Below are positions 1,259 through 61,701 of a DNA stretch of 64,000 bases, in pieces (the stretch's first letter is position 1; the number at the start of each line of letters is the position of its first letter). Source of the stretch: Verrucomicrobiia bacterium (GTDB lineage Bacteria > Verrucomicrobiota > Verrucomicrobiia > Limisphaerales > DSYF01); assembly GCA_035765895.1 (NCBI GenBank), contig DASTWL010000012.1, positions 38,565-102,564 of the forward strand, written 5' to 3'. Position numbers and translations under genes: made by a program. The notes under the pieces were generated by a model that saw only the letters and a list, made by a program, of their open reading frames with translations, had not been told where the DNA came from and did not search any database.

Positions 1259-1520
1259 GGCTTCTTCCCATCATCTTCGCGCAACGCCATCGGCGAATGA
1301 AGTTCCGCCGCTGCGCCAGTCATCTCCTGATGCATTGTGCCCGGGCAACCGTGCAATCGCCTTGGAAAACTGGGGGGAATGAACCACGAAACACACGAAC
1401 CACACGAAAGGGAAACAAGGTCAGGGGAATAAGAGCGGCTCCATTCCCTTGACCCCAATTCCCCTGATCCAAGTTTTCAATACCCCAGCACCAGCACCGC
1501 CGCCTGCTCCGCCGGACAGT

Positions 1521-1547
1521 TCCCCTCCTGGGAGGGGTCAGGGGTGG
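1521..1547. repeat. solo arm of the CCTGACC-hairpin repeat family
   Basis: cccctcctgggaggggtcaggggtggg is a hairpin (cccctcc/ggagggg) followed by GGTCAGG.G.GGG. It has the same layout as the right arm of the element at 61444-61475. Confidence 0.45.
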
Positions 1548-1555
1548 GTTGTTCC

Positions 1556-1912
1556 TCAATACACCAGCACGAGAACAGCAGCTTGCTCGGTAGTTTTGAC
1601 AACCTCTTCAAACTTCCGCTCCTTGGTTTCGGGTTCCTTGAGCTTCGCGGCGACTTCGGGGACGGATTCGAGGAAGCCGAGGAGGAAGCTGCTCTTCACC
1701 GCGCAGTTCACGTTCTCCGGCAGTGCGCCGCTCGACGCCAGCGCGGCGCGGGCGCTCAACTTGGCCGACACCATGCCCGCCACGTTCCCGCGCTCATCCA
1801 CCAGCGCCCCGCCCGAATTGCCCGGCTGCATCGGCACGCTGATCTGGAAATGCCGCGCGTCACCCCCCGCGCCGGACAGCGACGCGACCTCACCCTTGGC
1901 CAGCCATAGCAT
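1556..1912 (-). pseudogene. truncated trypsin-like (S1C/DegP-type) serine protease, C-terminal half only
   Basis: It contains the catalytic-Ser motif GNSGGALVDERGNVAGMVS. No His/Asp-bearing N-terminal half is present. The ORF starts exactly where the lower-G+C segment begins (1913/1914). Confidence 0.55.
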
Positions 1913-1913
1913 T

Positions 1914-2768
1914 TTAGGCTTTTGAAGCGATGGAGCCAGACTTGAAAGTTGTGCTACTTGAATCGCTGGTGACCACTAAATCTTCGACAGAGCATTCCAG
2001 ACCTAAGTGAGGGGGAACCTCCACGAACCGGGTCACATATTCGAGGAATGCCTTATCTCCGATTAACTCCACCATTGTAAAAGTAAAACTTCCGTCGTTT
2101 GGCTGGTAAAGGTGCCACGCTCTGCCAGTTTTTGTTGCAGTCACTCGCTTCTGGCTCAGAAGCGTGAGGATTTTCATGAAAGCTGATTCTGAAGGCCTCA
2201 TTGGGGGCGGTTCTGTGCCTACTGGTTGGGGCAGCTTTACTGACACGCGGGCTTTCTCTTCTGCAACTCGATATTTGACATACAAAACTTTCTGGCGGAT
2301 TTCGTCTCCGTTTGCATCAGCAAAAGCTTTGGCCCACAAACCAGGCCGAGTTGCGCGGCTCTCGACTTCTTTCATGGCTTGCTCGTAGAGCGCTTCTTCA
2401 GAAATTGAAGTGAGGTGCGCTTCGTTCGTTGAAGGAACTGGTTCCAGGTGTTGAAACTGTTGGTGGGGAGTTGACGCCGGTGTTTCTCGGCTTGTTTCGG
2501 TAGGCTGAGTCGAACGACTGGACGCCGTCCGACTCCAAAGAATGGAAAACGAGATGACTCCAACGGCTCCAATTGTTGCTGGCGACTTGTCTCCAATCGC
2601 CTGCCAGAAGGCCAGAAGCCCAAGGCCGATGAAGAATGAGATAATGATTGAAGGCCACAACGAGAGCGGTCGCCGAAGTATTCCCCATCGAATTACGACT
2701 GCTGGAATCAATCCTACCAGTATCTTAAGCATAGTCCTCGGGAATCCTGTGCATTGGCTTTTCTTCAA
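1914..2768 (-). CDS. hypothetical membrane protein encoded on the lower-G+C segment
   Basis: 284-aa ORF with an N-terminal hydrophobic region (3 predicted TM helices). It has a soluble part with the motif RPGLWAKAFADANGDEIRQKVLYVKYRV. Its start overlaps the tyrS stop by 4 nt (ATGA); an alternative start is M13 at 2732. Confidence 0.5.
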   Translation of the reverse strand: MKKSQCTGFPRTMLKILVGLIPAVVIRWGILRRPLSLWPSIIISFFIGLGLLAFWQAIGDKSPATIGAVGVISFSILWSRTASSRSTQPTETSRETPASTPHQQFQHLEPVPSTNEAHLTSISEEALYEQAMKEVESRATRPGLWAKAFADANGDEIRQKVLYVKYRVAEEKARVSVKLPQPVGTEPPPMRPSESAFMKILTLLSQKRVTATKTGRAWHLYQPNDGSFTFTMVELIGDKAFLEYVTRFVEVPPHLGLECSVEDLVVTSDSSSTTFKSGSIASKA

Positions 2769-4057
2769 TCCACGATTTCTACCAATGCATAATCCTTTTT
2801 CCCCTTTCGGAGTAGAAGGTAGTGGCCTGAAAACTGGAAGATTCGCGTGCTAACGACCAAATTTTGGTCCTGTTCTCGGATATTGTTTAGATACACCCCA
2901 CCTTCTTGGATCTTTCTGCGTGCTTCGCCCTTGGACTTGAACAATCCCGCGAGGACTAGCAACTCTGCAAATGCCATCCCGGGATCATCCAATTGCCTTT
3001 TTGAAACTTTTATAGTTGGCACCTCGTTACTCAGCATCTCAAACATACCTGCTTCGTTTTGCCAGACCGTCAGCGGACTACCGAAAAGGATGTCGCTCGC
3101 TTGCAGCGCCAGTTTCGTCGCGTGTTCACCGTGGATGAGGTCGGTGGCGGCTTTGGCGAGCGCGCGGTGCGCGGCGCGGGCGCCGGGATTTGCGTTGTGT
3201 TGCGCTTCGAGCGTCGCGATTTCTTCCTGCGGCAGGAAGGTGAAGAATTTCAGGTAGCGGATCACGTCCGCATCGGCGGTGTTGATCCAGAACTGGTAGA
3301 AGCGATAGACGCTGGTCTTCTTCGGATCGAGCCACACCGAGCCGCCCTCGGTCTTGCCGAACTTGGTGCCGTCAGCCTTGGTAATGAGCGGGAGCGTGAG
3401 GCCGAACGCGGAGCGCTGAAGCTTCTTGCGGATGAGGTCCATGCCGGCGGTGATGTTGCCCCATTGGTCGCTGCCGCCGATCTGGAGTTCGCAGTTATGG
3501 TCGCGCGCCAGCACCATGTAGTCGAACGCCTGGAGCAGCATGTAGCTGAACTCGGTGTAGCTGATGCCGACTTCGCGGTCTTCCATGCGCGCGCGGACGC
3601 TCTCCTTCGCCACCATCTGATTCACGGAAAAATGCTTTCCGATGTCGCGGAGGAAATCGAGGTAGGTGAGGTGCGCGGTCCAATCGGCATTGTCCACGAG
3701 TTTGGCCGGGTTCGCTTTGGCGTCGAAATCGAGCAGCTTGGCGAGCTGCGGGCGGACGGCTTCGACGTTGGCCTTGATCTGGTCCTTGGTGAGCAGCGAG
3801 CGCTCGGCGGATTTGCCGCTCGGGTCGCCGATGCTGCCGGTCGCGCCGCCGGCGACGGCGATGGGATGATGGCCGTAATTCTGAAAGCGACGCAATGCGA
3901 GCAACGGCACGAGATGCCCGACGTGGAGCGAGTCCGCCGTGGGATCGAACCCGCAGTAAAGCGTGATGGGCGACGCGGCGAGGCGCTTGGTCAGCTCGGG
4001 CGTGTCGGTGCAATCGGCGAAGAGGCCGCGCCATTGCAGTTCATCCAGAATGTTCAT
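2765..4057 (-). CDS. tyrS: tyrosine--tRNA ligase
   Basis: The class I motifs are HVGHL (HIGH) and KFGKT (KMSKS), with a C-terminal S4-like domain. I prefer the start at MNILDELQWRG (4057) over the ORF-track start at 4198. The 3' end, about 2765-3080, has visibly lower G+C. Confidence 0.9.
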   Translation of the reverse strand: MNILDELQWRGLFADCTDTPELTKRLAASPITLYCGFDPTADSLHVGHLVPLLALRRFQNYGHHPIAVAGGATGSIGDPSGKSAERSLLTKDQIKANVEAVRPQLAKLLDFDAKANPAKLVDNADWTAHLTYLDFLRDIGKHFSVNQMVAKESVRARMEDREVGISYTEFSYMLLQAFDYMVLARDHNCELQIGGSDQWGNITAGMDLIRKKLQRSAFGLTLPLITKADGTKFGKTEGGSVWLDPKKTSVYRFYQFWINTADADVIRYLKFFTFLPQEEIATLEAQHNANPGARAAHRALAKAATDLIHGEHATKLALQASDILFGSPLTVWQNEAGMFEMLSNEVPTIKVSKRQLDDPGMAFAELLVLAGLFKSKGEARRKIQEGGVYLNNIREQDQNLVVSTRIFQFSGHYLLLRKGKKDYALVEIVD

Positions 4058-4234
4058 GGGGGCGCAGGCTAAATTGCCGTTTGCCGGATGCCAATAGCCA
4101 ATCGAATGCGCCGCCGGAAGCCGCGCAAGGAAATGCCGCTTTACTCGCAATTTTTCCATTCCTAGTTTGAGCGAGTTAATGTGGGAAGCGTTTTTCATGG
4201 AAACGCCGCAACATCAGCGCGCGGCCGCACAGGA

Positions 4235-6223
4235 ATGACTGGCAAAACCAAAATTGATCGGGCGGGCCTCGCCCTGGGCGTGGGCGTGTGGCTGGTCGTG
4301 CTGGCGGGCGTGGGCGTGGCGTTGCGGCAGATTCAGGCCAATCGGGCCGAGCTGGAGCATCAGGCGGAGCAGGAGCTGGAGTCGGTGGCGGCGTTGAAGG
4401 CGCAGCAACTGGCCGGCTGGCGGGCCGAACGGCTGGCGGATGCGAGTTTTTTCAGCAATGCCGAGTTTGTGCGGCGGGACGTGTCGGCCTTCCTGCGGGA
4501 CCGGGGTTCATCCGTCGGGCGGGAAGAAATGATCCGGTGGATGAACCTGCTCAAGGGCGGGGAGCGTTACGAGCGCGTGTGGTTGTTCAATGCGCAAGGA
4601 AACCGGCAACTGTCCGTTCCGCCGGACACCAATCCGCCTTGCGCCTGTTTGCAGGCGTTGTTGCCGGCCGGGCTTCATGCCGATCAGGTGTCGTTGAGCG
4701 ACATCGAACGCGATCCGGCTGACGGCCATCTTTGCCTCCAGGCGTTGCTGCCCGTGCGGGGGGGCAACCAGACGGAAGCGCCGGGCGCCGCCCATCCGTT
4801 GATCGTCGTCACCATCAATCCGCGCAGCGTGCTGTTTCCGATGATCCAGACCTGGCCGGTCGCCAATGCGACGGCGGAGGTTCTCCTGCTGCGGCTCGCC
4901 GGCGATGAGGCGGTGGTGCTCAACGAACTGCGGCATCGCACCAACACCGCCCTGCAAATGAAGCTGCCGCTCGATGCCTCGCAGGCGCTGACGCTGCAGG
5001 CCTTGCGCGCGGGCAAGGGCGTGTGGTGGGGCAAGGATTATCGCGGGGTGCCGGTGGTGGCGGCCGTGCGGCCGGTGCCCGGCACGCCGTGGGTGCTGGT
5101 GGCGAAAATGGATGAAGCCGAATTCTCGGCGCCGCTGCGGGGCTACTTGTGGAGCACCGTGCTGCTGCTGGTGGTGCTCGCCCTGAGCGGCCTGCTCGTG
5201 GGCAGCGTGTTGCTCCGCCGGCAGCGCACGCGGCATCTGCGCGAGGAACTGACGTTGGAACGCGCCGGCCGGGCACTGGCCGAGCGGTTCGCCATCCTGA
5301 TGGAGAATGCCGGTGACATCATTTTGCTGATGGATTCCGAATTGCGGGTGGTGGAGGCGAACCGGCAGGCGGTCGAGGTGTTTGGCTTTTCGCTGGCGGA
5401 GCTGCGGGAGAAGCGGCTGCCTGAGCTGCTCGCGCCCGGCGCCGCGGCGGAGTTGCCGCGCCGGCTGGAACAGGTGCAGGGCCACGACAGTCTCGTGGAG
5501 GTGGCGGAAGGCCGGCATCGCGACGGCCACTCCTTCCACGTCGAAATCAATGGCCGCCGCGTGATGATCGATGGCGTTGACCGGTTGTTGCTGGTCGGAC
5601 GCGACATCAGCGCGCGGTTGCAACAGGAGCAGGCCCTGCGCGAGGCGCAACGGGAGCTGCAAGCCATCGTGGATCAGGCCGGTTCCCTGATTGGCGTAAA
5701 GGCGTTGGATGGCCGTTACCGGCTGGTCAACCAGGCTCTGGCCGGGCGGCTGGGGCGTCCGGCCGAGGCGCTGCTGGGCTGCACTGATGACGAACTGCTT
5801 CCCCGCGAGGCGGCCGAACGGGCCCGGGGGCAGCACCAGGAAGTCGTTCGGCGGCGCAAGCCGCTGATCTGCGAGGAAACGTTCACCGAAGCGGACGGGG
5901 CGCACACGTATCTCTCCCTCAAATTCCCGCTGACCGACGAGCAGGGCGAACTTTACGGCGTGGGGAGCATTGCAACGGACATCACCGGGCGCAAGGAGAC
6001 GGAGGAAAAGCTTCGGGCGCAGGCGGACGAACTGCGCGCGAATTATGACGCGCTGGCGCGGTTCAATCGCGTGGTCGTGGGCCGGGAGTTGCGCATGATT
6101 GAACTCAAGCGCGAGATTAACGAGCTGTGCCGGCAACTGGGCCGTCCGGCCCCTTACGTGAGCGATTTGACGGCGGTTGGACTGGCCCCGGAAGACGTTG
6201 CGAAACCGGCAGCACAACCATGA
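4235..6223 (+). CDS. membrane PAS-domain sensor protein without a kinase or other output domain
   Basis: Layout: N-terminal TM helix, ~280-aa extracytoplasmic region, second TM helix (LWSTVLLLVVLALSGLLVG), two PAS-like segments, and a C-terminal coiled coil (RELRMIELKREINELCRQLG). No H-box or ATPase is present. The ORF opens at 4181; I prefer the start at 4235. Confidence 0.7.
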   Translation: MTGKTKIDRAGLALGVGVWLVVLAGVGVALRQIQANRAELEHQAEQELESVAALKAQQLAGWRAERLADASFFSNAEFVRRDVSAFLRDRGSSVGREEMIRWMNLLKGGERYERVWLFNAQGNRQLSVPPDTNPPCACLQALLPAGLHADQVSLSDIERDPADGHLCLQALLPVRGGNQTEAPGAAHPLIVVTINPRSVLFPMIQTWPVANATAEVLLLRLAGDEAVVLNELRHRTNTALQMKLPLDASQALTLQALRAGKGVWWGKDYRGVPVVAAVRPVPGTPWVLVAKMDEAEFSAPLRGYLWSTVLLLVVLALSGLLVGSVLLRRQRTRHLREELTLERAGRALAERFAILMENAGDIILLMDSELRVVEANRQAVEVFGFSLAELREKRLPELLAPGAAAELPRRLEQVQGHDSLVEVAEGRHRDGHSFHVEINGRRVMIDGVDRLLLVGRDISARLQQEQALREAQRELQAIVDQAGSLIGVKALDGRYRLVNQALAGRLGRPAEALLGCTDDELLPREAAERARGQHQEVVRRRKPLICEETFTEADGAHTYLSLKFPLTDEQGELYGVGSIATDITGRKETEEKLRAQADELRANYDALARFNRVVVGRELRMIELKREINELCRQLGRPAPYVSDLTAVGLAPEDVAKPAAQP

Positions 6224-9200
6224 GTCTGGAGCGGCAAACAACGCGGGAGACTTTGGAACAGGAAGTCGCGACATTGCGGCTGCGCCTGGCGCAACTGGAG
6301 GGCAGCCGGCCGGTCGGGGCGGCGTCCGCCGGTGCCGTTTCACCGTGGTCCGCGCTGATCGAAAACATGGGCGTCAGCGCCGCCTTGCTCTCTGCCGATG
6401 GCTTGATTCTCTGTGCCAGCCGCGTCTTCGCGGAAATGTTTCGCCTGCCGGCAGAACTGCTGCCGGGCACGGCGCTGGCCTCGTTCATCTTCGACGAGCA
6501 CCGGCACCGCTACCTGACGCTGTTCGGCAGCCTGCAAAACGGTCCCACCACCGGCGAACTGGTGGGCCTGCGTGCCACCCGCGAGATGTTTCCCCTGCGG
6601 CTGACCCTGTGCCCCATGCCTGCCGTCAGCGGCGGGGCGGTGGCGGCGCTGGTCATCGACCAGACCCAGCAGGACGAACTGGAGCGGCTGCGCCGGCACG
6701 TGGCGGAGATGGAGCGGGAGCGTGCACAGCGGGACGCGGAATCAGCCGCGGCGTTGCGCGAACTCGCGGACGCGCGACTGGCGGCGTTGAACGTGCTGGA
6801 GGACGCCGTTCAAGCACGACAACGCAGCGAGCAGATCAACCGCCAGTTGCGGGAGAGTGAGGAACGTTTCCGCACACTCGTGGAGACGGCGCCCGACGCC
6901 ATTTCCATTCAGAGCGACGGCTGTTTTCGCTACGTGAATCGGGCGGTGCTCACGCTCTACGGTGCGGAGTCGCCGGCGCAACTGCTCGGGCGGCCGGCCT
7001 TGGATCGCGTGCATCCGGATTATCACGCCATCGCGCTCGAACGCCGGCGCCGGGTGGATGATGCGCATGAACCGGCCGGCGCCATGGAGCAGGTGCACCT
7101 GCGCCTCGACGGCACGCCGGTCCATGTGGACATTTGCGCGGTGCCGTTCCAGTTCGAAGGGGAACCGGCGGTGCTCGTTTTTGCGCGAAATCTGACCGAA
7201 CGCAAGCAGGCGGAAAAGGCGGCCGAGGAACGCTCGGCCGAACTGGACCGGTTTTTCAGCCTGGCGCTGGACCTGCTGTGCATCGCCGATCCGGGCGGTC
7301 GATTGCTGCGGTTGAACCCGGCGTGGGAACCGTCGCTCGGTTATCCGGTGGCGGAACTGGCCGGGCATTCGCTGCTCGACTTCGTGGATGAGGATGATGC
7401 CGCCGACACCATTGCCGCGTTCGCGGAAGTCTGTGCGAGGGGGGGCATCGTCAGCTTCACGAATCGCTGCCGTCACAAGGATGGCACCCTGCGCTGGATC
7501 GAATGGCGGGTGGCGTCTTACTCGGGTTCCCTGGTTTACGCGGCGGCGCGCGACATCACCGAGCGCCTGCAATCGGAGGAGACGCTGCGCCTGCGGAACA
7601 CTGCGCTGGAGGCGGCGGCGAACGTCGTGGTCATTACCGACCGTCAGGGCCGGATTGTCTGGACGAACCCTGCGTTCACGCAGTCCACGGGCTACACGGC
7701 GGCCGAGGTGCTGGGCCGCAACCCGCGCTTGTTGAAGTCGCAGGAACAAGACCCGGCCTTTTATCGCCAGATGTGGGAGGCGATCACGGCAGGCGACGTG
7801 TGGCAGGGCGAGTTCGTCAACGTCCGCAAGGACGGCACGCGCTTCACCGAACACGCCACCATCACACCGGTCCGGAATGAATCCGGCCAGATCACGCACT
7901 TCATTGCCGTGAAGCAGGACGTTAGCGAGCAGAAGCAGGCCGAACAACGGCTGCGCGACCAGGCGCAACTCCTCGACCTCGCGAATGACGCCATCATCGT
8001 CTGCGCGCAGGACCAGACGATCGTGAACTGGAATCAGGGCGCCGAGCGGCTTTACGGCTGGAGCAAGGCGGAGGCCCTCGGCCGGGCATTGCATCCGTTG
8101 CTGGGCCGGCCCCAGTCGGTGTCCGAGGCCGAGATCACCCGTGAACTCGACGCGCGCGGCAGTTGGAATGGCGAGCTTCGGCAGCACAACCGCGAGGGCA
8201 AGGAGATTACCGTCATCAGCCGCTGGACTCTGATTCGCGAGGAGCACGGCGCGGCCAAGAGCATTCTCGTCATCAACGCGGACGTCACCGAACGGAAGCG
8301 GCTCGAGGCACAGTTCCTCCGCATGCAGCGTGTTGAGAGCATCGGCACGCTCGCGGCCGGCATCGCGCATGATTTGAACAACATCCTCGCGCCGATTCTC
8401 ATGGTCGGCCCGTTGCTCGAGGAGAAGGTCAAGGACGACGAAGGCCGCTGGATGCTGGAGGCGGCGCGTAAAAACGCCGAGCGGGGCGCGTCCATCGTGA
8501 AACAACTGCTGACCTTTGCCAAGGGCAGTGAAGGCGAGCTGATCCCGCTCGACCTGACGCGCCTGCTCAAGGACATGGCCGGCATCGTGCGCGAAACGTT
8601 CCCGAAAAACATCCGCTGTGAAACGTCCCTGCCGCCGCAGCCATGGCCCGTGCTGGGCAACCTGACGCAACTCCACCAGGTTGTGCTGAACCTGTGCCTT
8701 AACGCCCGGGACGCCATGCCGGACGGCGGCCAGCTGCGTCTCGCCATGGACAACATCGTCGTGGATGAGTCGTTCGTGGCGATGGAAATCCAGGCCCGGC
8801 CCGGGCCATATGTGGTATTGACCGTGGCGGACACGGGCCAGGGCATTCCGGACGACATCAAGGAACGCATCTTTGATCCGTTCTTCACCACGAAGGGACC
8901 GGACCGGGGCACGGGGCTGGGCCTGGCGACGGTGCTGGGCATCGTGCGCAGCCACAATGGATTCATCCGCCTGACCAGCCGGGTGGGGGAGGGATCACAA
9001 TTCAAGATTTACCTGCCGGCGTCCGACATTGTGGACACGGCGGGTCAGGCGGCCGAACAGACGGCGGCAGCGCCCCGCGGCAATGGCGAGTTGATTCTGC
9101 TGGTGGACGACGAGGAGGCCGTGCGTGCCACGAGCCGCCGGGCCCTGACCAAGTTTGGCTACCGCGTGGTGGAGGCGGCCGACGGCACCGAGGGGGTCAG

Positions 9201-9462
9201 CCGCTTCGTCCAGCAGGCGGAGGCAGTCCGGCTGGTGATCACCGATCTGCAAATGCCCTACATGGGCGGGGTCGCGCTGATTCATGCCGTGCGCAAAATC
9301 CGGCCGGACATCACGGTGCTGGCGGCGACGGGTTATGGCTCCAAGGAAACACTGCGCGAACTCGAGGCCCTCGGCATCGCCGGGGTGATGAACAAACCCT
9401 ACTCGGCGCGGGAATTGTTGGAGGCGGTGCGCAAGGTGTTGCTCGGCGAGCCGCTCAAATAA
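6220..9462 (+). CDS. multi-PAS hybrid sensor histidine kinase/response regulator
   Basis: Several PAS repeats are followed by an H-box (AAGIAHDLNNILAPI), a HATPase_c domain (DTGQGIP..GTGLGLA), and a C-terminal receiver (ILLVDDEE..ITDLQMP). The ATG at 6220 overlaps the upstream stop (ATGA). Confidence 0.85.
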   Translation: MSLERQTTRETLEQEVATLRLRLAQLEGSRPVGAASAGAVSPWSALIENMGVSAALLSADGLILCASRVFAEMFRLPAELLPGTALASFIFDEHRHRYLTLFGSLQNGPTTGELVGLRATREMFPLRLTLCPMPAVSGGAVAALVIDQTQQDELERLRRHVAEMERERAQRDAESAAALRELADARLAALNVLEDAVQARQRSEQINRQLRESEERFRTLVETAPDAISIQSDGCFRYVNRAVLTLYGAESPAQLLGRPALDRVHPDYHAIALERRRRVDDAHEPAGAMEQVHLRLDGTPVHVDICAVPFQFEGEPAVLVFARNLTERKQAEKAAEERSAELDRFFSLALDLLCIADPGGRLLRLNPAWEPSLGYPVAELAGHSLLDFVDEDDAADTIAAFAEVCARGGIVSFTNRCRHKDGTLRWIEWRVASYSGSLVYAAARDITERLQSEETLRLRNTALEAAANVVVITDRQGRIVWTNPAFTQSTGYTAAEVLGRNPRLLKSQEQDPAFYRQMWEAITAGDVWQGEFVNVRKDGTRFTEHATITPVRNESGQITHFIAVKQDVSEQKQAEQRLRDQAQLLDLANDAIIVCAQDQTIVNWNQGAERLYGWSKAEALGRALHPLLGRPQSVSEAEITRELDARGSWNGELRQHNREGKEITVISRWTLIREEHGAAKSILVINADVTERKRLEAQFLRMQRVESIGTLAAGIAHDLNNILAPILMVGPLLEEKVKDDEGRWMLEAARKNAERGASIVKQLLTFAKGSEGELIPLDLTRLLKDMAGIVRETFPKNIRCETSLPPQPWPVLGNLTQLHQVVLNLCLNARDAMPDGGQLRLAMDNIVVDESFVAMEIQARPGPYVVLTVADTGQGIPDDIKERIFDPFFTTKGPDRGTGLGLATVLGIVRSHNGFIRLTSRVGEGSQFKIYLPASDIVDTAGQAAEQTAAAPRGNGELILLVDDEEAVRATSRRALTKFGYRVVEAADGTEGVSRFVQQAEAVRLVITDLQMPYMGGVALIHAVRKIRPDITVLAATGYGSKETLRELEALGIAGVMNKPYSARELLEAVRKVLLGEPLK

Positions 9463-17264: not shown

Positions 17265-18602
17265 TTATCCCGAATGATCCGGCCGTTTCCCGGCGGCGAC
17301 GTTTGCCGGGTTTTGGGGCGACGTGGTGGTCCGCCATTCGTTGAGGCTGCGTTCGTCCTGGTTGGGCGCGGCCGCCAGTTGCAGCGTCTCCATCGCCTCG
17401 CCGACCAGGTAGAGCGAGCCGGCCACCACGACGAAGCGCTCGCCGGCCACGCGGCGCAACGCATCGTGGGTGTCGGCAGCGGATTCCACGGCGGCTTGCG
17501 GGTTGGCCTGGCGGCAGGCAGCCACGAGCATGTCCGCGCCCATCGTGCGTTCGCTGTTCAACGGCACGCACACGATGCGCCCCGCGCAGGGCGCGAGGAT
17601 GTCGCACATCAAATGCCAGTCCTTGTCCTCGAGGATGCCCAGGACCAGCGTGGGGCGGGCCGCGGGGAAATGTTCGTCCAGTGCCGCGCGCAGGGCGGTG
17701 GCGCCGCCGGGATTGTGCGCGCAATCCAGCAACCAGCGCCGGCCGTCGGGCCGCTCCACCAATTGCAGCCGGCCCGGCCAGCGCACCGTCTGCAATCCGG
17801 CGCGCACCGTGTCGTCGGCGACGGGCAGGGTGTCTTGCAGGACGCCGACCGTGGCGAGCGCCACCGCGGCGTTCAACCTTTGATGCCAGCCGAGCAACGG
17901 CAGGGGCAGGGTGTCGAGGGGCGGATGTTGCGTGTGCGCCGGCGTGACGAGCGTCAGCGGACTTTGGCGGCGGCGCGCGACATCCTGTATGACGGCGAGG
18001 GCCTCGGGTTCATTGGCACCGGTGATGGCGGGCACGTGCGGCTTGATGATGCCCGCCTTCTCCGAGGCAATGCTGCCGAGCGTGTGGCCCAGCCAGCGTT
18101 CGTGATCGAATTGAATGTTGGTGATGACGCTGGCGAGCGGCGTGACGATGTTCGTGGCATCCAGCCGTCCGCCCAGGCCGGTTTCCCAGATGACCAGGTC
18201 GCAGCGTTGTTCGGCAAAGTAACGCAGCGCCAGCACCACGACGACCTCGAAGAAGGTGGGATGCGCGTCGGCCGGAAACTCCTTCAACAACGGCTGCAAC
18301 TCGCCCACAAGCCGCACGACGTCCGCCTCGGCAATCGGCCGGCGGTTGACCTGGATGCGTTCGCCGAAGCTGACGAGGTGGGGCGACGTGAACAGGCCCA
18401 CGCGCCATCCCGCCGTGCGATAAATGCTCTCGAGCATGGCGCACGTGGAGCCCTTGCCGTTGGTGCCGGCCACGTGGATGAACCGCAGCCGTTCGTGCGG
18501 CTGGCCGGCGAGCGCGGCCAGCTTGTGCGTGTTCTCCAAGCCGAACTTCGCCCCGAAAAAGCGGAGGCCGTAGAGGTAATCGATGGTTTCGCGATACGTC
18601 AT
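17265..18602 (-). CDS. folC: bifunctional folylpolyglutamate synthase/dihydrofolate synthase
   Basis: The N-terminus is TIDYLYGL..FG.K.GLEN with a Mur-ligase P-loop (HVAGTNGKGST). Confidence 0.9.
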   Translation of the reverse strand: MTYRETIDYLYGLRFFGAKFGLENTHKLAALAGQPHERLRFIHVAGTNGKGSTCAMLESIYRTAGWRVGLFTSPHLVSFGERIQVNRRPIAEADVVRLVGELQPLLKEFPADAHPTFFEVVVVLALRYFAEQRCDLVIWETGLGGRLDATNIVTPLASVITNIQFDHERWLGHTLGSIASEKAGIIKPHVPAITGANEPEALAVIQDVARRRQSPLTLVTPAHTQHPPLDTLPLPLLGWHQRLNAAVALATVGVLQDTLPVADDTVRAGLQTVRWPGRLQLVERPDGRRWLLDCAHNPGGATALRAALDEHFPAARPTLVLGILEDKDWHLMCDILAPCAGRIVCVPLNSERTMGADMLVAACRQANPQAAVESAADTHDALRRVAGERFVVVAGSLYLVGEAMETLQLAAAPNQDERSLNEWRTTTSPQNPANVAAGKRPDHSG

Positions 18603-20546: not shown

Positions 20547-20649
20547 ATCCTTAAGATGACTACCGCAGCCGCGCCGGGAAAATCAATTCCCGCGGGTTGA
20601 TCATGCCGGGGATCACCTCAGCCGCGCGGAGCGCGGTCTTGGCGGATCG

Positions 20650-20800
20650 CCCTTCCAATGGCCGACGAGGTTAGCTGTCGGGCTGGGCCTTGAAAGTGGC
20701 CTGAGCAGCGGTTGCCCGTCGCTCTGCGCCCCGCCCGGCGTGGTTCACACCGGGAATCTGGTTCCCCCGCCTGCAGCTTCAGGAAGGAAGCCGCAGTTAG
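20650..20800 (-). promoter_or_regulatory. candidate c-di-AMP riboswitch (ydaO-yuaA class) in the kup 5' leader
   Basis: The minus-strand RNA contains GGCGGGGGAACCA, CCGGUGUGAACC, GCCGGGCGGGG and CCCAGCCCGACAGCUAACCUCGUCGGCC. As I remember the ydaO consensus, these match its conserved blocks (GGGGGACCCA, GGGGUGAAUC, GGUAGGG, CCCGAAUCCG.CAGCUAACCUCGUAAGC). It ends about 105 nt upstream of the kup ATG. Confidence 0.55.
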
Positions 20801-21094
20801 GCTGCGTGGGTGAAGGTTACCGCAATGGTCGGACGGATGCAAACCCTCGGAAACATTGCCATTCGGGCAACGGCCCTTCACCGGCTGCGCCGAACCGGCC
20901 TGAAGGGCATTGTCACTTCAGGCGGCTTCATACCGCTCCAATCAAAAAATTTCGGTGTCGGCACGACGGGCAGAGCATGGTCACTCTGAGCGAACAAATC
21001 CGGGCGCCATCACCGCATAGCGGCCCATGACCAAAAACGGCAATCCACTTTCAGCCGCCTTGTTGATTATGGTTTGGAATGCGCCCCCGTCGCC

Positions 21095-22708
21095 TCAGTT
21101 CACCTTCTGGCTCGACCGCTGATACGCCGCGGCGATGAAACCCTTGAACAGCGGATGCGGCTGGTCCGGCTTGCTCATAAATTCCGGATGGAACTGGCAC
21201 GCGATGTAGAATGGATGGCCCGGGATTTCGATGATCTCGACCAGCTTGCCGTCGGGCGACGTGCCGCTGAAGACAAAACCGGCCTTGGTGAACTTGTCGC
21301 GGTAGTGGTTGTTGAACTCGTAACGGTGCCGGTGGCGTTCCTTGATGACGAATGCGCCGTAAAGCCGGGCCGCGAGCGTGTCCATGCCGAGCTGGCACGG
21401 CTGCGCGCCGAGCCGCATCGTGCCGCCCTTCTTCGTCACTTTGAGCTGGGTGTCGAGCAGTGCGATCACCGGATGCGGCGTGGCGGGGTCAAACTCCGCC
21501 GAATGCGCCTTCTCCAGCTTGAGCACGTGGCGCGCGAATTCAATGGTGGCGATCTGCATGCCGAGGCACAGCCCGAGATAGGGCACGTTGTTTTCGCGCG
21601 CGTATTTGGCCGCGAGAATTTTGCCCTCAATGCCGCGGTCGCCAAAGCCGCCCGGCACCAGCACGCCACCCAGGCCCTTCAACTGAGATTCTGCGCCGTG
21701 CCGCTCGATCTCCTCCGCATCCACGCGCACCAGTTCCACGCCGCAATCGTTGCCGATGCCGCCGTGGATGACCGCTTCGTAAACCGATTTGTAGGCGTCT
21801 TGAAGCCCGATGTATTTGCCCACCACGCCGATGCGAACGCGGTTTTGCGGTGCGATGAGTTTGCGGATGATTTCCTGCCAGTGCGTCATGTTCGCCGCGG
21901 GACGTTCCAGCCGCAACTGGTCGCACACCAGCTGGTCCACGCGTTCGCGTTGCAGCATCAGCGGCATTTCATAAATGCTGTGGTCCACGTCCTTCGCCTC
22001 GATCACCGCCTCGAAGGGCACGTTGCAAAACAGCGAGATTTTCTGGCGCAATTCCTTGTCCAGCGGCTTTTCGCAGCGGCACGCGATGATGTTCGGGAAG
22101 ATGCCGATTTCGCGCAGCTTGGCGACCGATTGCTGCGTGGGCTTGGTCTTGAGTTCGCCGGCGGCCTTGATGAACGGCACGTAGGTGACGTGGATGAACA
22201 TCGCGTTGTGCGGGCCCTGTTCCAGGGCAAATTCGCGGATCGCCTCCAGGAACGGCAGTCCTTCAATGTCGCCCGTCGTGCCGCCGATTTCGGTGATCAG
22301 CACGTCCGCCTTCGATTCCGCCGCCACATCGAGGATGCGCTGCTGGATTTCGTCCGTGACGTGCGGGATGACCTGCACCGTCTTGCCGAGGTAATCGCCG
22401 CGGCGCTCCTTCTCGATCACGTTCAGGTAAACGCGGCCGCTGGTCAGATTGTTCAGCTTGGTGAGCTGCGTATGGGTGAACCGCTCGTAATGCCCGAGGT
22501 CGAGGTCGGTTTCGGTGCCGTCGTCGAGCACATAGACTTCGCCGTGCTGAAACGGGCTCATCGTGCCCGGATCCACGTTCAGGTAGGGGTCGAATTTTTG
22601 CAGGGCGACCTTGAGACCGCGGTTTTCGAGCAGCGTGCCCAGGGCCGCCGCCGTCAAACCCTTGCCCAGGGAACTGACCACGCCGCCGGTGACGAAGATG
22701 TATTTCAT
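21095..22708 (-). CDS. pyrG: CTP synthase
   Basis: It starts MKYIFVTGGVVSSLGKG and has a C-terminal glutamine amidotransferase domain (GLCLGMQ). I prefer the start at 22708 over 22783. Confidence 0.95.
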   Translation of the reverse strand: MKYIFVTGGVVSSLGKGLTAAALGTLLENRGLKVALQKFDPYLNVDPGTMSPFQHGEVYVLDDGTETDLDLGHYERFTHTQLTKLNNLTSGRVYLNVIEKERRGDYLGKTVQVIPHVTDEIQQRILDVAAESKADVLITEIGGTTGDIEGLPFLEAIREFALEQGPHNAMFIHVTYVPFIKAAGELKTKPTQQSVAKLREIGIFPNIIACRCEKPLDKELRQKISLFCNVPFEAVIEAKDVDHSIYEMPLMLQRERVDQLVCDQLRLERPAANMTHWQEIIRKLIAPQNRVRIGVVGKYIGLQDAYKSVYEAVIHGGIGNDCGVELVRVDAEEIERHGAESQLKGLGGVLVPGGFGDRGIEGKILAAKYARENNVPYLGLCLGMQIATIEFARHVLKLEKAHSAEFDPATPHPVIALLDTQLKVTKKGGTMRLGAQPCQLGMDTLAARLYGAFVIKERHRHRYEFNNHYRDKFTKAGFVFSGTSPDGKLVEIIEIPGHPFYIACQFHPEFMSKPDQPHPLFKGFIAAAYQRSSQKVN

Positions 22709-22779
22709 GGAAAAATTCAACGGGGACGGCTTGCACACCGTCCCCGGGCCTATGTTGTAACCGAAACCGGCGTCCGGCT

Positions 22780-23523
22780 TCAAGCTTGGGCTGCGAGCCG
22801 TGCCTCCACGCGCGCCACGTCCGCCGGGACGTCCACGCCGATGCTTTCGTAATTCACTTTCACCACGCCGATGGCGATGCCGTTCTCGAGGGCGCGAAGC
22901 TGCTCCAGCTTTTCGGCATTTTCGAGCGGCGAAACCGGGAACTGCACCAGCCGCAGCAGCGTGTCCCGCCGGTAGCCGTAAATGCCGAGGTGCTTCAGGA
23001 ACTGAAACGCTGCCAGTTGCTCGGCCGCCGGACGGGCAGCAGCGTCGCGCAGGAAGGGAATCGTGCGGCGCGAGAAATACAGCGCGCGGCCATTGGCGCC
23101 AACAACCACTTTGACCACGTTGGGATTGTCGTATTCCGCGACGTCGCAGATAACGGCGGCAGCCGTGGACATTTCGTTGCCGGTCAGCGTGCCGGCCACG
23201 GCGTCAATCACCGCCGGGTCCATCAACGGCTCGTCGCCCTGCACATTCACCACGGCATCGCATTCGCAGCGCGTCGCGACTTCCGCGATGCGGTCCGAGC
23301 CGCTCGCATGATCCGCCCGCGTCATCTCCACGCGACAAAACTGCCGCGCACACGCCGCAATGCGCTCGTCATCCGTGGCCACGATGACATCCGCCAGCGA
23401 CTTCGCCTTGCGGCATTGCTCGACGACGCGCTGGATGAGCGGCCGGCCGGCGATGGGATGCAGTGGCTTGCCGGGAAAGCGCGTGCTGGCGTAACGGGCG
23501 GGAATGATGCCGAGAATGTTCAC
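22780..23523 (-). CDS. kdsB: 3-deoxy-manno-octulosonate cytidylyltransferase (CMP-KDO synthetase)
   Basis: The N-terminus is IIPARYASTRFPGKPL and the protein is 247 aa, a typical KdsB length. Confidence 0.9.
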   Translation of the reverse strand: MNILGIIPARYASTRFPGKPLHPIAGRPLIQRVVEQCRKAKSLADVIVATDDERIAACARQFCRVEMTRADHASGSDRIAEVATRCECDAVVNVQGDEPLMDPAVIDAVAGTLTGNEMSTAAAVICDVAEYDNPNVVKVVVGANGRALYFSRRTIPFLRDAAARPAAEQLAAFQFLKHLGIYGYRRDTLLRLVQFPVSPLENAEKLEQLRALENGIAIGVVKVNYESIGVDVPADVARVEARLAAQA

Positions 23524-37869: not shown

Positions 37870-37954
37870 TGGTGCGCACGGCAGGACTTGAACCTGCACG
37901 ATGTTACTCACTAGAACCTGAATCTAGCGCGTCTGCCAATTCCGCCACGTGCGC
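37870..37954 (-). tRNA. tRNA-Leu (anticodon CAG)
   Basis: The reverse complement is GCGCACGTGGCGGAATTGGCAGACGCGCTAGATTCAGGTTCTAGTGAGTAACATCGTGCAGGTTCAAGTCCTGCCGTGCGCACCA. It has a 7-bp acceptor stem, an anticodon stem CTAGA/TCTAG with loop TTCAGGT, a long variable arm, a T-arm GGTTCAAGTCC, and an encoded CCA. Confidence 0.92.
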
Positions 37955-38015: not shown

Positions 38016-40796
38016 TTAGCGGCGTTCCAGTTTTTCGATGGCCCGGCGCAGGTTGCGTTCAATGGCCTCCCAGCGCTCCCCGGCCGCAATCTTTTTGCCG
38101 TCGGCTTCCCGCACGTAAAAGCTGTCAATGGCCGCCCCCTTTTCGGTGCTGATCCGCGCCGAGGAGATGTTGAGCTTCAATTCGGCCATCGCCTGGGAAA
38201 TGCCGTGCAGCAGGCCGATGGTGTCCTCGGTTTCGATGTCGATCAGCGAGCGTTCGGCCGACGCCTCGTTGTCGAGGGTGATCTGGGTGACGATGGGTTC
38301 GCCGCTGTAATCCTGGTAAAGCGTCCGGGCCCGGCGCTGTTTGGCAATCAGCGCGGTGAGGTCGAAATCCGCCGTGGTGAGCACGCGGCCCAGCAGGTCG
38401 TCAAATTCCTCGGTTTGTTCCGGGTCGGCGAGGGAGCCGGTGCGGCCGTCAGTGACGGAAAACACGTCGAGCACGATGCCGTCCTTGCGGGTGAACACCT
38501 GTGCGCGGAGGATGTTCAAGCCCGTGGCGCTCAGGGCGCCGGCAATGTGGCTGAACAGCCCGGCGCGGTCCCACGTGCAGATCCGCACGTCACTGTAACC
38601 GCGGTCGCGTTGATGCTGCCAGCGGGTCGCCGGCGCCAGCGCGTGCCCGTCTTCACCCACCTGCTGCTGCATGAAGCGGTGGACGAGTTCGATGTCCTCG
38701 ACAATCTGGTCCGCGTTGTTGTGCACGAGGAAATAGCGGGGCGGCATGGCGGCAAAATGGGCCTCCGCCTCGTCCGCTTCGAGGCTCGCCGGGAGTTCCT
38801 GGCAGACTTCGCGCATGAGGGACTCGCGCTGCTTTTCCTCGGCGCGGAGGAATTCCGTGCCGCCCGTCAACAGCTTCATCGCCTTGCGGTGCAGAATCCA
38901 CAGGAGCGAATCCTTGAAGCCGTTCCACAATTTGTCGCTCGTCGCCACCGAATCCACGAAGGTCAGCAGGGTGAGGAGCTTCAGGTTTTCAGGCGTTTGC
39001 AACTGGCGGGCGAAGGTCGCCACCACGTCCGGATCGTCCAGGTCGCGGCGTTGCGAGGTGATGGCCATGAGCAGGTGATGGGCGATCACGTTCTGCAACG
39101 TGTCAATGGCGCCCTCCTCCAGGTGTAGCCGGCGGGCCACGCGCTGGGCGAGTTTGCCGCCGACTTCGGCGTGTTTGCCATGGCCGCCCGCCTTGCCGAC
39201 GTCGTGCAGCAGCAGGGCGAGGTAGAGCAGGTAGGGATGTTCGAGTTCCTGCAACAGGCTGGTGTATTCCGCGTAGGGGGCGGTCTTGCCCTCCCACACC
39301 CGGTCAAGCTGTTCAAGGCACATCAGGGTGTGTTCGTCGGCGGCGTATTGGTGATAGAACTCGTGCTGCACGAGGCAGGTGAGCTTGCCAAATTCGGGAA
39401 TGTATTTGCCGAGCAAGCCCGTCTCATGCATGGCCCGCAGCACGCGCGCGACGTCGCCACGCTGGTTGAGGATGGCGAGGAAACTCTCATGCACATGGGC
39501 ATCGGCGAGGAACGCCCGGTCCACGAGCGGCAGTTGATTCCGGATCAACTGCACGAGGTCGGGATGCAACTGGAGGCCGCGTTGTTGGGCGTGCAGAAAC
39601 ACGCGCATCAGGCGCCGGGGGGAATCGCGGAACACCCGCGGCGAGGCGGCGTGAATCTCGCCGTTGATGAACTTGAAACCGTCCACTGGTTCGACGGCAA
39701 CGGGCTTCTGCCGCGGCAGGAGCTTGCGCAGGGAGAACCGGGACAATTGGGGCGGCAGGATGGCCATGCGTTGTTCCAGCGTGCGCGTGATCAAAAACAC
39801 GTTGCGGGTGTGCGTGTAGAAATCGCGCATGAAACGCTCGATGCGGCGGCTGGCCGAGCGTTCGTGGTAGCCCAGCCCGTGCGCGATGGCCGGCTGCAGG
39901 TTCTTCGTCAGCACATCCGTGAGGCGTGGCACCTCGTAGTGCATCTCCGTGCGCACGCGGAGCAGAAAATCGTAGGCAGCCTCGAGTTGTTTGCGTTCCG
40001 TGGCGCTGATGAATTCCCGCGCCTGCAGGTCCGCGAGCGAGCGGGTGCCGTGCTTGAAGAAGGCCATCCACAGCAGGTTCTGGTAATCCCGCAGGCCGCC
40101 GCAGCCGTTCTTCACGTTCGGCTCCAGCATGAACGCCGAATTGCCAAACTTGGTCCGCCGGGCGGATTGATCCTCCATGCGGGCGGCGATGTATTCATCG
40201 GCGTGGCCCTTGACGCATTTGGCCACGATGGTCTGCTGAAATTTCTCGAACAACCCCTGGTCACCGGCGATCAGCCGGGACTCGATCACGGAGGTTTTCG
40301 ACTGCATGTCGCTGTTGGCCACCTTGACGCATTCCTCCAGCGAACGGACCGAATGCCCGATCTTGAAGCCCAGATCCCACAGCGGATACAGGATGCCGTC
40401 CAGCATGCGGGCCAGATAGGGATGCGGCTTGCCCGCGCCGACCACCTGGCCGTTGTGCAGGAACATGAAATCAATGTCGCTGTGCGGATTCAACTCGCCG
40501 CGGCCGTAGCCGCCCAGGGCGATCAGCGCGATTTTGGGAAACTCCTTCTGCGCCTGCGGGGACAGGCTCTGCTTGGCCGTGTCCCAGAAATGCCGCAACA
40601 GCACGTCAAGGATGTGGGCACGTGCGGCGCAGACTTCGCGGCCGCCGGCGCCGGCGCGGTGCAGCATCTTGAGGCGGTGCGTTTCGACCTTGAGGAAGGC
40701 CTTGTAACGCGCGAGTTCCTGGGACGGCTGGCGTCCGGCGGGCAGGACCAGCCGGGTGGCGGCGCTGGTCTCGATTTTCTGGAGCAAGGTCTGCAT
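38016..40796 (-). CDS. glnD: [protein-PII] uridylyltransferase/uridylyl-removing enzyme
   Basis: It has the nucleotidyltransferase motif GGYGRGELNPHSDIDFMFL, an HD domain (LLHDVGK), and two C-terminal ACT domains. I prefer the start at MQTLLQK (40796). Confidence 0.9.
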   Translation of the reverse strand: MQTLLQKIETSAATRLVLPAGRQPSQELARYKAFLKVETHRLKMLHRAGAGGREVCAARAHILDVLLRHFWDTAKQSLSPQAQKEFPKIALIALGGYGRGELNPHSDIDFMFLHNGQVVGAGKPHPYLARMLDGILYPLWDLGFKIGHSVRSLEECVKVANSDMQSKTSVIESRLIAGDQGLFEKFQQTIVAKCVKGHADEYIAARMEDQSARRTKFGNSAFMLEPNVKNGCGGLRDYQNLLWMAFFKHGTRSLADLQAREFISATERKQLEAAYDFLLRVRTEMHYEVPRLTDVLTKNLQPAIAHGLGYHERSASRRIERFMRDFYTHTRNVFLITRTLEQRMAILPPQLSRFSLRKLLPRQKPVAVEPVDGFKFINGEIHAASPRVFRDSPRRLMRVFLHAQQRGLQLHPDLVQLIRNQLPLVDRAFLADAHVHESFLAILNQRGDVARVLRAMHETGLLGKYIPEFGKLTCLVQHEFYHQYAADEHTLMCLEQLDRVWEGKTAPYAEYTSLLQELEHPYLLYLALLLHDVGKAGGHGKHAEVGGKLAQRVARRLHLEEGAIDTLQNVIAHHLLMAITSQRRDLDDPDVVATFARQLQTPENLKLLTLLTFVDSVATSDKLWNGFKDSLLWILHRKAMKLLTGGTEFLRAEEKQRESLMREVCQELPASLEADEAEAHFAAMPPRYFLVHNNADQIVEDIELVHRFMQQQVGEDGHALAPATRWQHQRDRGYSDVRICTWDRAGLFSHIAGALSATGLNILRAQVFTRKDGIVLDVFSVTDGRTGSLADPEQTEEFDDLLGRVLTTADFDLTALIAKQRRARTLYQDYSGEPIVTQITLDNEASAERSLIDIETEDTIGLLHGISQAMAELKLNISSARISTEKGAAIDSFYVREADGKKIAAGERWEAIERNLRRAIEKLERR

Positions 40797-40887
40797 GTCC
40801 GGCGCACACTTTGGGGCATACCGGCTTGAACGCAAGCGCGGCGCAACCTTGTTCGCCTGCTGGTGTTTCCTTAACTTGGCCGCCGTA

Positions 40888-49046: not shown

Positions 49047-49252
49047 CCACGGGAGCGAAGAACAGATTGATTGGCCTCACGAAGGAATTGTCCGCAGATT
49101 GGGCCGTGACCAAGGAATCCTGGCGCGACGCCAAAAGTTTGGAATTTGAAAAACGTTATCTGGAAGACCTGATGGCCGGCGTGAATGCCGCCGTCACCAA
49201 CATTGATGCCCTTGAACGAATCCTCGGAAAAATCCACGACGACTGCCAGTAA
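49043..49252 (+). CDS. WXG100-like small helical protein (W-R-D variant), paralogous to 48126-48398
   Basis: It is 69 aa. ESWRDAKSLEFEKRY aligns with TWSDQEHAKFAEEF of the first protein (W-x-D-x5-F-x3-[FY]). It overlaps the 5' end of the ATPase ORF unless the ATPase starts at TTG 49293 or GTG 49305. Confidence 0.45.
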   Translation: MTTGAKNRLIGLTKELSADWAVTKESWRDAKSLEFEKRYLEDLMAGVNAAVTNIDALERILGKIHDDCQ

Positions 49253-53192: not shown

Positions 53193-54038
53193 TCAGCGTG
53201 GCCGCGTGGCCCGTTCTTGAAGCCAGGTGATGTCCGGGTTGTTCGGCGAGGCGAAGAGGTCGTTCACAAATCCATCCCGGACCAGCGGCGGCGTCGTGCG
53301 GGGGTCGCGCCACTTCTTGATTTCCGAATGCCCGTCGGCGAAGGAGAAGCCGCAGGCGCCGTTGTGGTAAATTCCAGGCAAATCCCAGAAGACATACCGC
53401 TCGGGCTGATTGGGCCAGCCGCTCATGTTCACGCACAGGTTGCCCATATCGATGCTGTCCTCGCGCATGTCGAGCAGCACGAACATCATCGAAGGCGGCG
53501 GGTCGTTGATGTCGGAAAACTTCAGGTAGATGCGGTAATTGCTGATTTGCGGTCCCCAATTGCCGTCGGTGCCGCCCCAGCCGCCGAGATAGACATTCAT
53601 CGACATGCTGCGCACGCGCGGTTTGGCTTCGCCGTTGACGATGACCTTGGAGGTGTCCGCCGGGCAGCGCCAGATGCTGAGGTTCTGGCCGCAGTAGGGC
53701 CAGAGCGGGCTTTTCTTGATGCTGACATCGGGATCCCAGTTGGCGCGGTTCGCGGGGTTGTAGTCCAACGTGCCGGTGACCCATGCGTAAGGGTAGGTAT
53801 CGGGGAGCCAGGGCGCTTCGCTCGCGTAGGGGAGCAGATCGTGGTTGTCCTCGGCATACATCCGCCAGGCCAGCGCGAGCTGGCGGTGATTGTTCATGCA
53901 GTAAATGCCCTGGGCCTTTTGTTTGGCGCGATTCAAGGTCGGGAGGAGCAGCGCCGCCAGAATGCCAATGATCACAATGACGACCAGCAGCTCGATGAGC
54001 GTGAAGCCGGCCGAATTGGACAACTTGGGGCAGCGCAT
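53193..54038 (-). CDS. DUF1559 protein with prepilin-type N-terminal cleavage/methylation signal (H-X9-DG type)
   Basis: The N-terminus is [23 protein letters not shown]. The C-terminal motif [13 protein letters not shown] is typical of the large PVC paralog family. Confidence 0.88.
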
Positions 54039-61293: not shown

Positions 61294-61325
61294 ATTTCGG
61301 AGGTGAGAATTTGGTTGGTCGCTCT

Positions 61326-61475
61326 CCCTCATCCCGGCCTTCTCCCCAAGGAGAAGGAGAATTATTCGCCGGTTTTCTGAAAGATCGAGTGACTGGATTT
61401 GCCCGGCGACCTGTCGCAAAACCAAACACGCATCGGCGCGGTTCCTTCTCCCGGGGGAGAAGGTCAGGATGAGGG
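61326..61475. repeat. MITE-like element with ~32-bp terminal inverted repeats (CCTGACC-hairpin family)
   Basis: The left arm is ccctcatcccggccttctccccaaggagaagg. The right arm is ccttctcccgggggagaaggtcaggatgaggg, whose reverse complement is nearly identical to the left arm. Each arm has its own hairpin. The element lies 33 nt after the ileS stop. Confidence 0.7.
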
Positions 61476-61701
61476 CGGGCAACACACCATTTGCAGATCA
61501 GGCGCATTGTATTGTCGGCCTCCGAAAGCGGAGCTGAAGCGGCAGCACTCCAGGTGCTGTCGCGTTTAGATGGTAGGTGACGACGTAAGGAGTCTCACTT
61601 TAGAAACCGGCAGGGAGATTAACAGGCGAATGGGGAGAAACGAATTGAGGATAAGTTAGAGACTCGCCACCCCGTCTCCTACCATTGTTAAGGCGCTTCG
61701 C

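Follow-up and report, generated by a model that had tools for sequence, protein, structure and literature searches.

The locus analysed here raises two questions: does the leader of its kup potassium-transporter gene contain a c-di-AMP riboswitch of the ydaO class and, if so, how would binding of the ligand be relayed to kup? The first-pass annotation of the window (the whole 64,000-nt stretch of DNA analysed) had proposed such an element from four sequence blocks in the leader, and had regarded both the pairing with kup and the phylum as not well documented. The latter view does not agree with the literature, since a passage of PMC6488665 (citing Nelson 2013 and Block 2010) already reports putative c-di-AMP riboswitches predicted in the 5′-UTRs of ktr, trk, kdp and kup, in phyla that include Verrucomicrobia. 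The kup pairing and the occurrence in Verrucomicrobia are therefore not new, and the residual novelty lies in the conserved expression platform of the high-G+C members, which lacks a U tract.

Identity and fold of the kup leader aptamer

In an Rfam 15 covariance-model scan, the kup leader matched RF00379 (c-di-AMP/ydaO) from end to end (model positions 1-134 of 134; 20813-20645 on the minus strand), scoring 51.3 bits where the gathering score is 38, with an E-value of 5.5e-9 that applies to the whole window, both strands and all 4227 Rfam families. Two matches in the window exceeded their gathering scores, this one and a tRNA, and RF00379 is thus the sole riboswitch among them. A clade-specific covariance model built here (R1) gave 180.4 bits at 20809-20645. 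The covariance-model check suggested in the first-pass annotation accordingly came out above threshold, and the consensus helices can be formed. By every computational criterion applied, the element in the kup leader is a genuine c-di-AMP (ydaO-class) riboswitch. Its position is also as first proposed: the kup ORF starts 99 nt downstream of the aptamer on the same strand.

All four blocks that had drawn attention to the leader were found again between 20771 and 20660 of the minus strand, in the order originally given (Table 1). One of them had been misassigned. CCGGUGUGAACC had been equated with the conserved GGGGUGAAUC block, but the covariance-model alignment places it within the insert of the variable hairpin, and it is GGGGCGCAG at 20732-24 that really corresponds to GGGGUGAAUC. 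In terms of the fold, the GGG strand and the CGCAG junction, taken with G20732, which closes the variable hairpin, are what corresponds to the conserved GGGGUGAAU block; relatives carry GGGGCGCA and GGGGCGAA in its place. The inner stem of the variable hairpin pairs CCCGG (20754-20750) with CCGGG (20738-20734), and 21 nt of this hairpin are counted as insert by Rfam. A conserved GAAC junction follows the 5′ strand of P3.

Table 1. Features of the kup locus
Feature	Coordinates	Strand	Evidence or remark
Putative -35 element TTTGCAT (TTGCAT 20842-20837)	20837..20843	-	Phylogenetic footprint
Putative -10 element TAACCT	20814..20819	-	TAnnnT shared by all five relatives; spacing from the -35 element 17-18 nt
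c-di-AMP riboswitch aptamer (RF00379)	20645..20813	-	Rfam score, R1 score, covariation, conserved columns
P1 5′ strand GCC	20800..20802	-	Pairs with GGC 20663-20661; helix 1 100% paired
P2 hairpin CUGCGGCUUC-CUUCCU-GAAGCUGCAG	20771..20796	-	Helix 2: 10/10 pairs change on both sides, 96.9% paired
P3 5′ strand GCGGGG	20765..20770	-	Pairs with CCUCGU 20670-20665; helix 3 98.2% paired
Variable hairpin, contains CCGGUGUGAACC	20732..20760	-	C-G pair, then A.C mismatch, inner stem CCCGG/CCGGG
GGG and junction CGCAG	20724..20731	-	GGG pairs with CCC 20682-20680; helix 5 98.9% paired
P5 hairpin, GCAA tetraloop	20704..20723	-	Helix 6: 8/8 pairs change on both sides, 93.5% paired
Hairpin GGCC-ACUUUCAA-GGCC	20686..20701	-	Helices 7 and 8; loop CUUUCAA 20696-20690 makes the pseudoknot
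Pseudoknot 3′ tail UUGGAAG	20652..20658	-	Pairs with loop CUUUCAA; helix 8 94.3% paired
Block of the first-pass annotation, GGCGGGGGAACCA	20771-20759	-	
Block of the first-pass annotation, CCGGUGUGAACC	20753-20742	-	
Block of the first-pass annotation, GCCGGGCGGGG	20739-20729	-	
Block of the first-pass annotation, CCCGACAGCUAACCUCGUCGGCC	20682-20660	-	
Platform part 1: stem A and hairpin 1	20608..20652	-	RNAalifold consensus, five close relatives
Platform part 2: GC-rich hairpin 2 and flanks	20562..20598	-	Flanks AACC(C)GC and GCGGU
Weak Shine-Dalgarno AAGGA	20552-20548	-	
kup start codon ATG	20546-20544	-	
kup, KUP-family K+ transporter, 626 aa	18666..20546	-	PF02705 630.5 bits and PF22776 183.9 bits
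Folylpolyglutamate-synthase-like gene (Mur_ligase, FOL3_C)	17265..18602	-	63 nt downstream of kup

When the window was mapped by hand onto the five-sequence alignment, nearly every consensus pair was formed (P1 3/3, P2 10/10, P3 6/6, GGG:CCC 3/3, P5 7/8 and P6 4/4). The pseudoknot is complete, with 7/7 pairs between CUUUCAA and UUGGAAG, and across relatives two of its positions occur as CG/UA/UG and AU/CG/UG.

R1 was built from five close sequences with the Rfam helices; MAFFT had misaligned the central hairpins of distant aptamers. Alignment to R1 yielded 101 matches, 95 of them distinct, and the pseudoknot was added for the pair counts. Among the 95 distinct relatives, standard pairs made up 95.4% of 3679 pair cells compared with 77.0% in column shuffles, changes on both sides were seen in 32 of the 43 pairs, and the covariation score was 0.414 compared with 0.126 in the shuffles, figures to be read with the caveat that the alignment was fitted to the model and that, for most relatives, the search pattern itself dictated the 3′ strands of P1 and P3. 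None of 500 shuffles reached any of the observed values, and sliding the 3′ partners by 1-3 columns reduced pairing to 35-52%. In P2, P5 and the last hairpin the sequence varies freely, with compensating changes. Furthermore, at each of the 54 columns with a conservation of at least 93% among the 95 clade members the window agrees with the clade; 28 of these columns lie outside the search pattern. It also fits most upper-case positions of the Rfam consensus.

Putative promoter, gene context and relatives of the kup riboswitch

The Kup protein contains K_trans (PF02705, residues 15-466) and K_trans_C (PF22776, residues 478-626) domains, and its 100% identical match, encoded on a 106-kb contig, bears the NCBI name 'MAG TPA: potassium transporter Kup [Verrucomicrobiae bacterium]'. 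L204-L207, four related loci from metagenomes whose Kup proteins are 78-81% identical, keep the kup start position as well as the promoter footprint, the aptamer and the ~100-nt platform, and the distance from CAGCUAACC to the ATG is 123-128 nt in these loci compared with 130 nt in the window. On the minus strand, kdsB (22780-23523) and pyrG (21095-22783) come first, then 548 nt of intergenic sequence that contains the riboswitch, followed by kup and the folylpolyglutamate-synthase-like (folC-like) gene. The distance from kup to this last gene is 10-220 nt across the window and several relatives (L205-L207), i.e. the adjacency is conserved, and the gene is possibly co-transcribed with kup and co-regulated by the riboswitch. 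The best named relatives of the pyrG product, CTP synthase, are 82-83% identical and come from Verrucomicrobia/Verrucomicrobiota and Pedosphaera; in relatives with a 90-94% identical pyrG product, kup was not found downstream of pyrG. The contig of P0137, a relative with a 77% identical Kup (JGI sample 3300047160), has the order kdsB-pyrG-kup-folC with a pyrG-kup gap of apparently only 123 nt, which is too short for both aptamer and platform, and so the riboswitch may be absent there.

Just upstream of P1 we identified a phylogenetic footprint consisting of (G/A)TTTGC(A/C/G), 17-18 nt, TAnnnT, ~7 nt and then ACGCAGCC. The first element lies at the same distance in four relatives with diverging flanks, and the counterparts of the -10 element in L204-L207 are TACACT, TACACT, TAGTCT and TAGAGT. 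A consensus promoter scan of the window made no call at this footprint. We infer that the footprint is a sigma-70-type promoter, with a predicted start at about 20807-20805. A transcript from a promoter in this position would open with ACGCAGCC, which forms the 5′ strand of P1.

Pairing of the riboswitch with kup recurs in other genomes. Among 80 kup loci from GTDB species genomes, the riboswitch lies just upstream of kup in six: a MAG mislabelled Klebsiella (L001), a Verrucomicrobia MAG (L006), three Acidobacteriota (L002, L049 and L056) and a Syntrophus MAG (L052). The first five scored 52.6-71.8 bits against RF00379, and L052, which was outside the Rfam-scanned five, was found with R1 only (46.2 bits). 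A metagenome scan with a clade-specific 3′ pattern gave 120 loci, 49 of which have a Kup homologue directly downstream. For another 42 loci, in which the sequence extends at least 700 nt downstream, the first ORF was classed. KimA-like AA_permease_2 proteins (12 loci, e.g. L170) and SPFH/Band_7 proteins (nine loci, e.g. L120) were the largest classes, alongside one KdpA (L189), one PF06153 c-di-AMP receptor (L130) and two small-protein families without a Pfam match (seven and three loci). SPFH proteins are, to our knowledge, not a commonly cited part of the c-di-AMP regulon. Judged from the predicted products, the downstream gene set of the clade is the expected c-di-AMP/potassium regulon. The identity, fold, covariation and gene context of the aptamer are shown here, together with the recurrence of its pairing with kup.

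The kup leaders of the Acidobacteriota (L002, L049, L056) and of low-GC metagenomic relatives (L087, L096, L117 and others) belong to the same aptamer clade as the window and precede the same gene family. In a group of loci that includes L001 (ORF at 1298-1603), L094, L109, L161, L164 and L182, an ORF of ~100 aa with two CxxC pairs, zinc-ribbon-like, lies between the riboswitch and kup, and here the riboswitch would control a two-gene unit. L161 also has a second, weak R1 match (25.5 bits; 1391-1558, plus strand) on the opposite strand, near the true riboswitch.

A diadenylate cyclase was not found in the 64-kb window, either by a Pfam DisA_N search among 43 ORFs or by a DAC motif scan, nor was one found by motif and Pfam searches of the fetched relative loci. 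A Verrucomicrobia-specific cyclase class, DacD, is known from Lacunisphaera, Coraliomargarita and Opitutae (PMC6741144). The riboswitch would place Kup-mediated K+ uptake of an uncultured Verrucomicrobiae lineage under RNA-level control by c-di-AMP. It extends the c-di-AMP regulon, known best from work on Firmicutes and Actinobacteria, into a Gram-negative phylum of the environment, and is useful for annotation and for inferring the use of c-di-AMP in osmotic and K+ homeostasis, leaving current understanding unchanged.

Putative expression platform between the aptamer and kup

The sequence between the aptamer and kup folds into two predicted parts (Table 1). In the first, stem A pairs GGG(C)GAUC (20652-20645) with GAUCCCC (20614-20608) and encloses hairpin 1, CCGCGC-UCC-GCGCGG (20636-20622), which the first-pass annotation had already picked out. 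Compensatory variants of stem A occur in other high-GC leaders (GAAC:GUUC, AAUC:GAUU, AAAUCU:AGGUUU and GAUU:AGUC). As a thermodynamically exceptional duplex stem A was rejected, its energy being no better than that of shuffled sequence (median z -0.3), and the argument for this putative stem comes down to its position and the compensatory variants. In the second part, hairpin 2 (CCCGCGGGAA-UUGAUU-UUCCCGGCGCGG, 20596-20569) has a folding energy of -15 to -27 kcal/mol in the five relatives and ends 15-20 nt before the AUG. Its flanks match the terminator stem of low-GC relatives, AAACCGC...GCGGUUUUUU. Neither the terminator scan of the window nor the leader comparison revealed a U tract after hairpin 2, in agreement with the earlier remark that no U-tract terminator follows the aptamer.

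To place the window among its relatives, 116 leaders were compared and sorted by aptamer G+C. Nearly all of those with an aptamer G+C of 0.56 or below carry a canonical terminator, located 35-48 nt downstream of the pseudoknot tail and typically AAACCGCUGCC-UUGCC-GGCGGUUUUUUU, whereas those at 0.61 or above (window 0.67) are mostly without one. In the kup leaders of Acidobacteriota, the pseudoknot tail UUGGAGG doubles as the Shine-Dalgarno sequence (GGAGG), 3-5 nt before the start codon. Leaders of the window type have neither arrangement. In L096, L117, L129 and similar low-GC loci, the kup Shine-Dalgarno sequence is buried in a further hairpin, CUCCUC...GGAGGAG, ~50-90 nt past the aptamer. 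This hairpin comes after the canonical terminator and suggests a second layer of control in these loci.

High-G+C members, the window among them, may share an undescribed platform that replaces the low-G+C terminator, an idea that we regard as doubtful at present. Its parts would be a stem joining the nucleotides after the tail to a C-rich segment ~35 nt downstream, the GC hairpin that this stem encloses, and, shortly ahead of the start codon, a second GC-rich hairpin that has no U tract. If true, the platform could act as a translational switch of the relay type, or else as a terminator that is non-canonical or depends on a factor, and would be shared by Verrucomicrobiota kup, SPFH and KimA-like genes. 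The wider question is how c-di-AMP riboswitches relay ligand binding in high-G+C genomes without U-tract terminators, and the locus and its ~50 high-GC relatives form a ready comparative data set for it.

Several further candidates in the platform were considered. GGCUGCG (20570-20564), on the 3′ side of hairpin 2, is complementary to CGCAGCC (20805-20799) of the 5′ strand of P1, and the duplex has an energy of -10 to -16 kcal/mol in all five relatives. Since it contains an uncompensated mismatch in three of the five, it was rejected as a proven antiterminator and is kept as a candidate alternative pairing only. Simple sequestration of the Shine-Dalgarno sequence and AUG was also rejected, because computed accessibility of the start region did not shift consistently between free and aptamer-locked folds of the five relatives (unpaired probability at -18..+6, free/locked: 0.60/0.43, 0.51/0.55, 0.51/0.48, 0.49/0.50 and 0.38/0.45). 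A 14-codon upstream ORF (MINPRELIFPARLR, 20560-20604, minus strand) has GAGG 11 nt before its AUG and a stop 14 nt before the kup ATG. As L171 has no equivalent ORF, it was rejected as a 14-aa leader peptide and is probably fortuitous.

Proposed control of kup and alternative readings

As a whole, the locus is very probably explained best by an RF00379 riboswitch that appears to have its own promoter and would lower kup expression when c-di-AMP is high. Transcription would start at the promoter just upstream of P1. High cellular c-di-AMP, as a signal of potassium sufficiency, would then lock the pseudo-symmetric aptamer through P1, P3 and the pseudoknot that the CUUUCAA loop forms with the UUGGAAG tail, and the locked aptamer would turn down expression of Kup and possibly of the adjacent folC-like gene. 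We propose the OFF direction because characterised members behave in this way and because it fits the logic of K+ homeostasis. Indeed, the B. subtilis c-di-AMP riboswitches of ydaO (kimA) and yuaA (ktrAB), studied by Nelson and colleagues in 2013, are reportedly OFF switches. The window shares with them the full-length RF00379 match, the pseudoknotted, pseudo-symmetric architecture and the logic of K+ importer control. In contrast to these Firmicutes elements, which come from a low-G+C genome, have a canonical intrinsic terminator and control KimA and KtrAB, the window element would control Kup, has longer P2 and P4 hairpins, and has a GC-rich platform of ~100 nt without a U tract.

Comparison with other systems places this proposal in context. 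High c-di-AMP represses K+ import (PMC7288161). In B. thuringiensis, a c-di-AMP riboswitch likewise lies in the 5′-UTR of a K+ uptake system, kdpFABC, where binding of c-di-AMP promotes upstream termination (Wang et al. 2019, PMC6488665); the ligand lowers expression at sufficient K+ and intrinsic termination was demonstrated there, but in a different phylum and for a different transporter. The S. coelicolor rpfA riboswitch comes from a high-G+C organism and is the closest precedent for a GC-rich platform; a passage of PMC10117811 reports that c-di-AMP binding terminates its transcription prematurely (St-Onge et al. 2015; St-Onge and Elliot 2017). Unlike the window element, it controls a cell-wall hydrolase gene and belongs to Actinobacteria. 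In KupA and KupB of Lactococcus lactis and in KimA (PMC10284832), the same messenger shuts down the same transporter family, with c-di-AMP binding directly to the protein in contrast to the RNA-level control proposed for the window.

How the bound aptamer would act on kup is less clear-cut. Premature termination (attenuation) at hairpin 2 (20596-20569 plus flanks) is, in our view, the most likely single mechanism, and we favour it tentatively, with somewhat less than even confidence. Hairpin 2 sits where low-GC relatives have their canonical intrinsic terminator and shares AACCGC...GCGGU with it, the U tract having been lost. Both B. thuringiensis kdp and, according to the passage cited above, high-GC S. 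coelicolor rpfA terminate prematurely upon ligand binding, which argues for this mechanism. However, the homology of hairpin 2 to the low-GC terminator is drawn from short flanking motifs and, as no U tract follows, intrinsic termination would have to be non-canonical. The same riboswitch could instead act on translation, as the first-pass annotation had suggested, with a platform segment masking the kup ribosome-binding region in the bound state; we consider this possible, if rather unlikely. Candidate masks include the C-rich 3′ strand of stem A (GAUCCCC) and the G-rich GGCUGCGGU, which in the free state would be held by the pseudoknot-tail region or the P1 5′ strand. Consistent with translational control are the missing canonical terminator, the conservation of stem A with compensatory changes, and the complementarity of its 3′ strand to the Shine-Dalgarno region in other high-GC leaders (GAUCUCC/GGAGAU and GCUCCG/CGGAGU). 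In addition, the pseudoknot tail that doubles as the Shine-Dalgarno sequence in Acidobacteriota points to translational control of this very pair of riboswitch and gene. In the subgroup of the window, however, GAUCCCC can form only 4-5 bp with a Shine-Dalgarno sequence that is weak and not conserved, and the unpaired probabilities of the start region given above speak against masking.

Because neither of these simple mechanisms fits well, action of the same riboswitch through a trans factor was also weighed. Ligand binding would here expose an A/U-richer linker (20607-20597), or the long leader as a whole, to Rho or RNase E. An untranslated spacer of ~100 nt without a U-tract terminator, and a relatively A/U-rich stretch after stem A in many high-GC relatives, are in agreement with such a mechanism, but the spacer is G+C-rich and strongly structured and so a poor Rho site, and we judge this relay improbable. 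Finally, the aptamer itself might be a relic, or its ligand specificity might have shifted such that c-di-AMP is no longer sensed. Two junctions depart from the general Rfam consensus (UGAAU to CGCAG, at three of five positions, and GAA to CAG), and the RF00379 score of the window is at the low end compared with the other kup-linked examples. Both departures are nevertheless found throughout a large clade in which purifying selection is evident and changes are compensated, and the genes of that clade (kup, kimA-like, kdpA and a c-di-AMP receptor) are exactly a c-di-AMP regulon, which makes loss of c-di-AMP sensing very improbable.

Some features of the window outside the kup locus were also noted. 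Its sole tRNA is a tRNA-Leu (CAG) at 37870-37954 (minus strand). Against a background G+C of 0.62-0.66, the content dips to 0.56 at 2001-4000, over a tyrosyl-tRNA synthetase gene, and to 0.58 at 60001-62000, over the 3′ end of an isoleucyl-tRNA-synthetase-like gene. The plus strand has two adjacent PAS-rich sensor ORFs at 4181-9462, which overlap by ~100 nt and the second of which is a hybrid histidine kinase with a receiver domain, and a 1332-aa FtsK/SpoIIIE-family ATPase at 49185-53183. The minus strand encodes a GlnD-like PII uridylyltransferase (38016-40835) and an N_methyl/DUF1559 protein (53193-54038) typical of the PVC superphylum.
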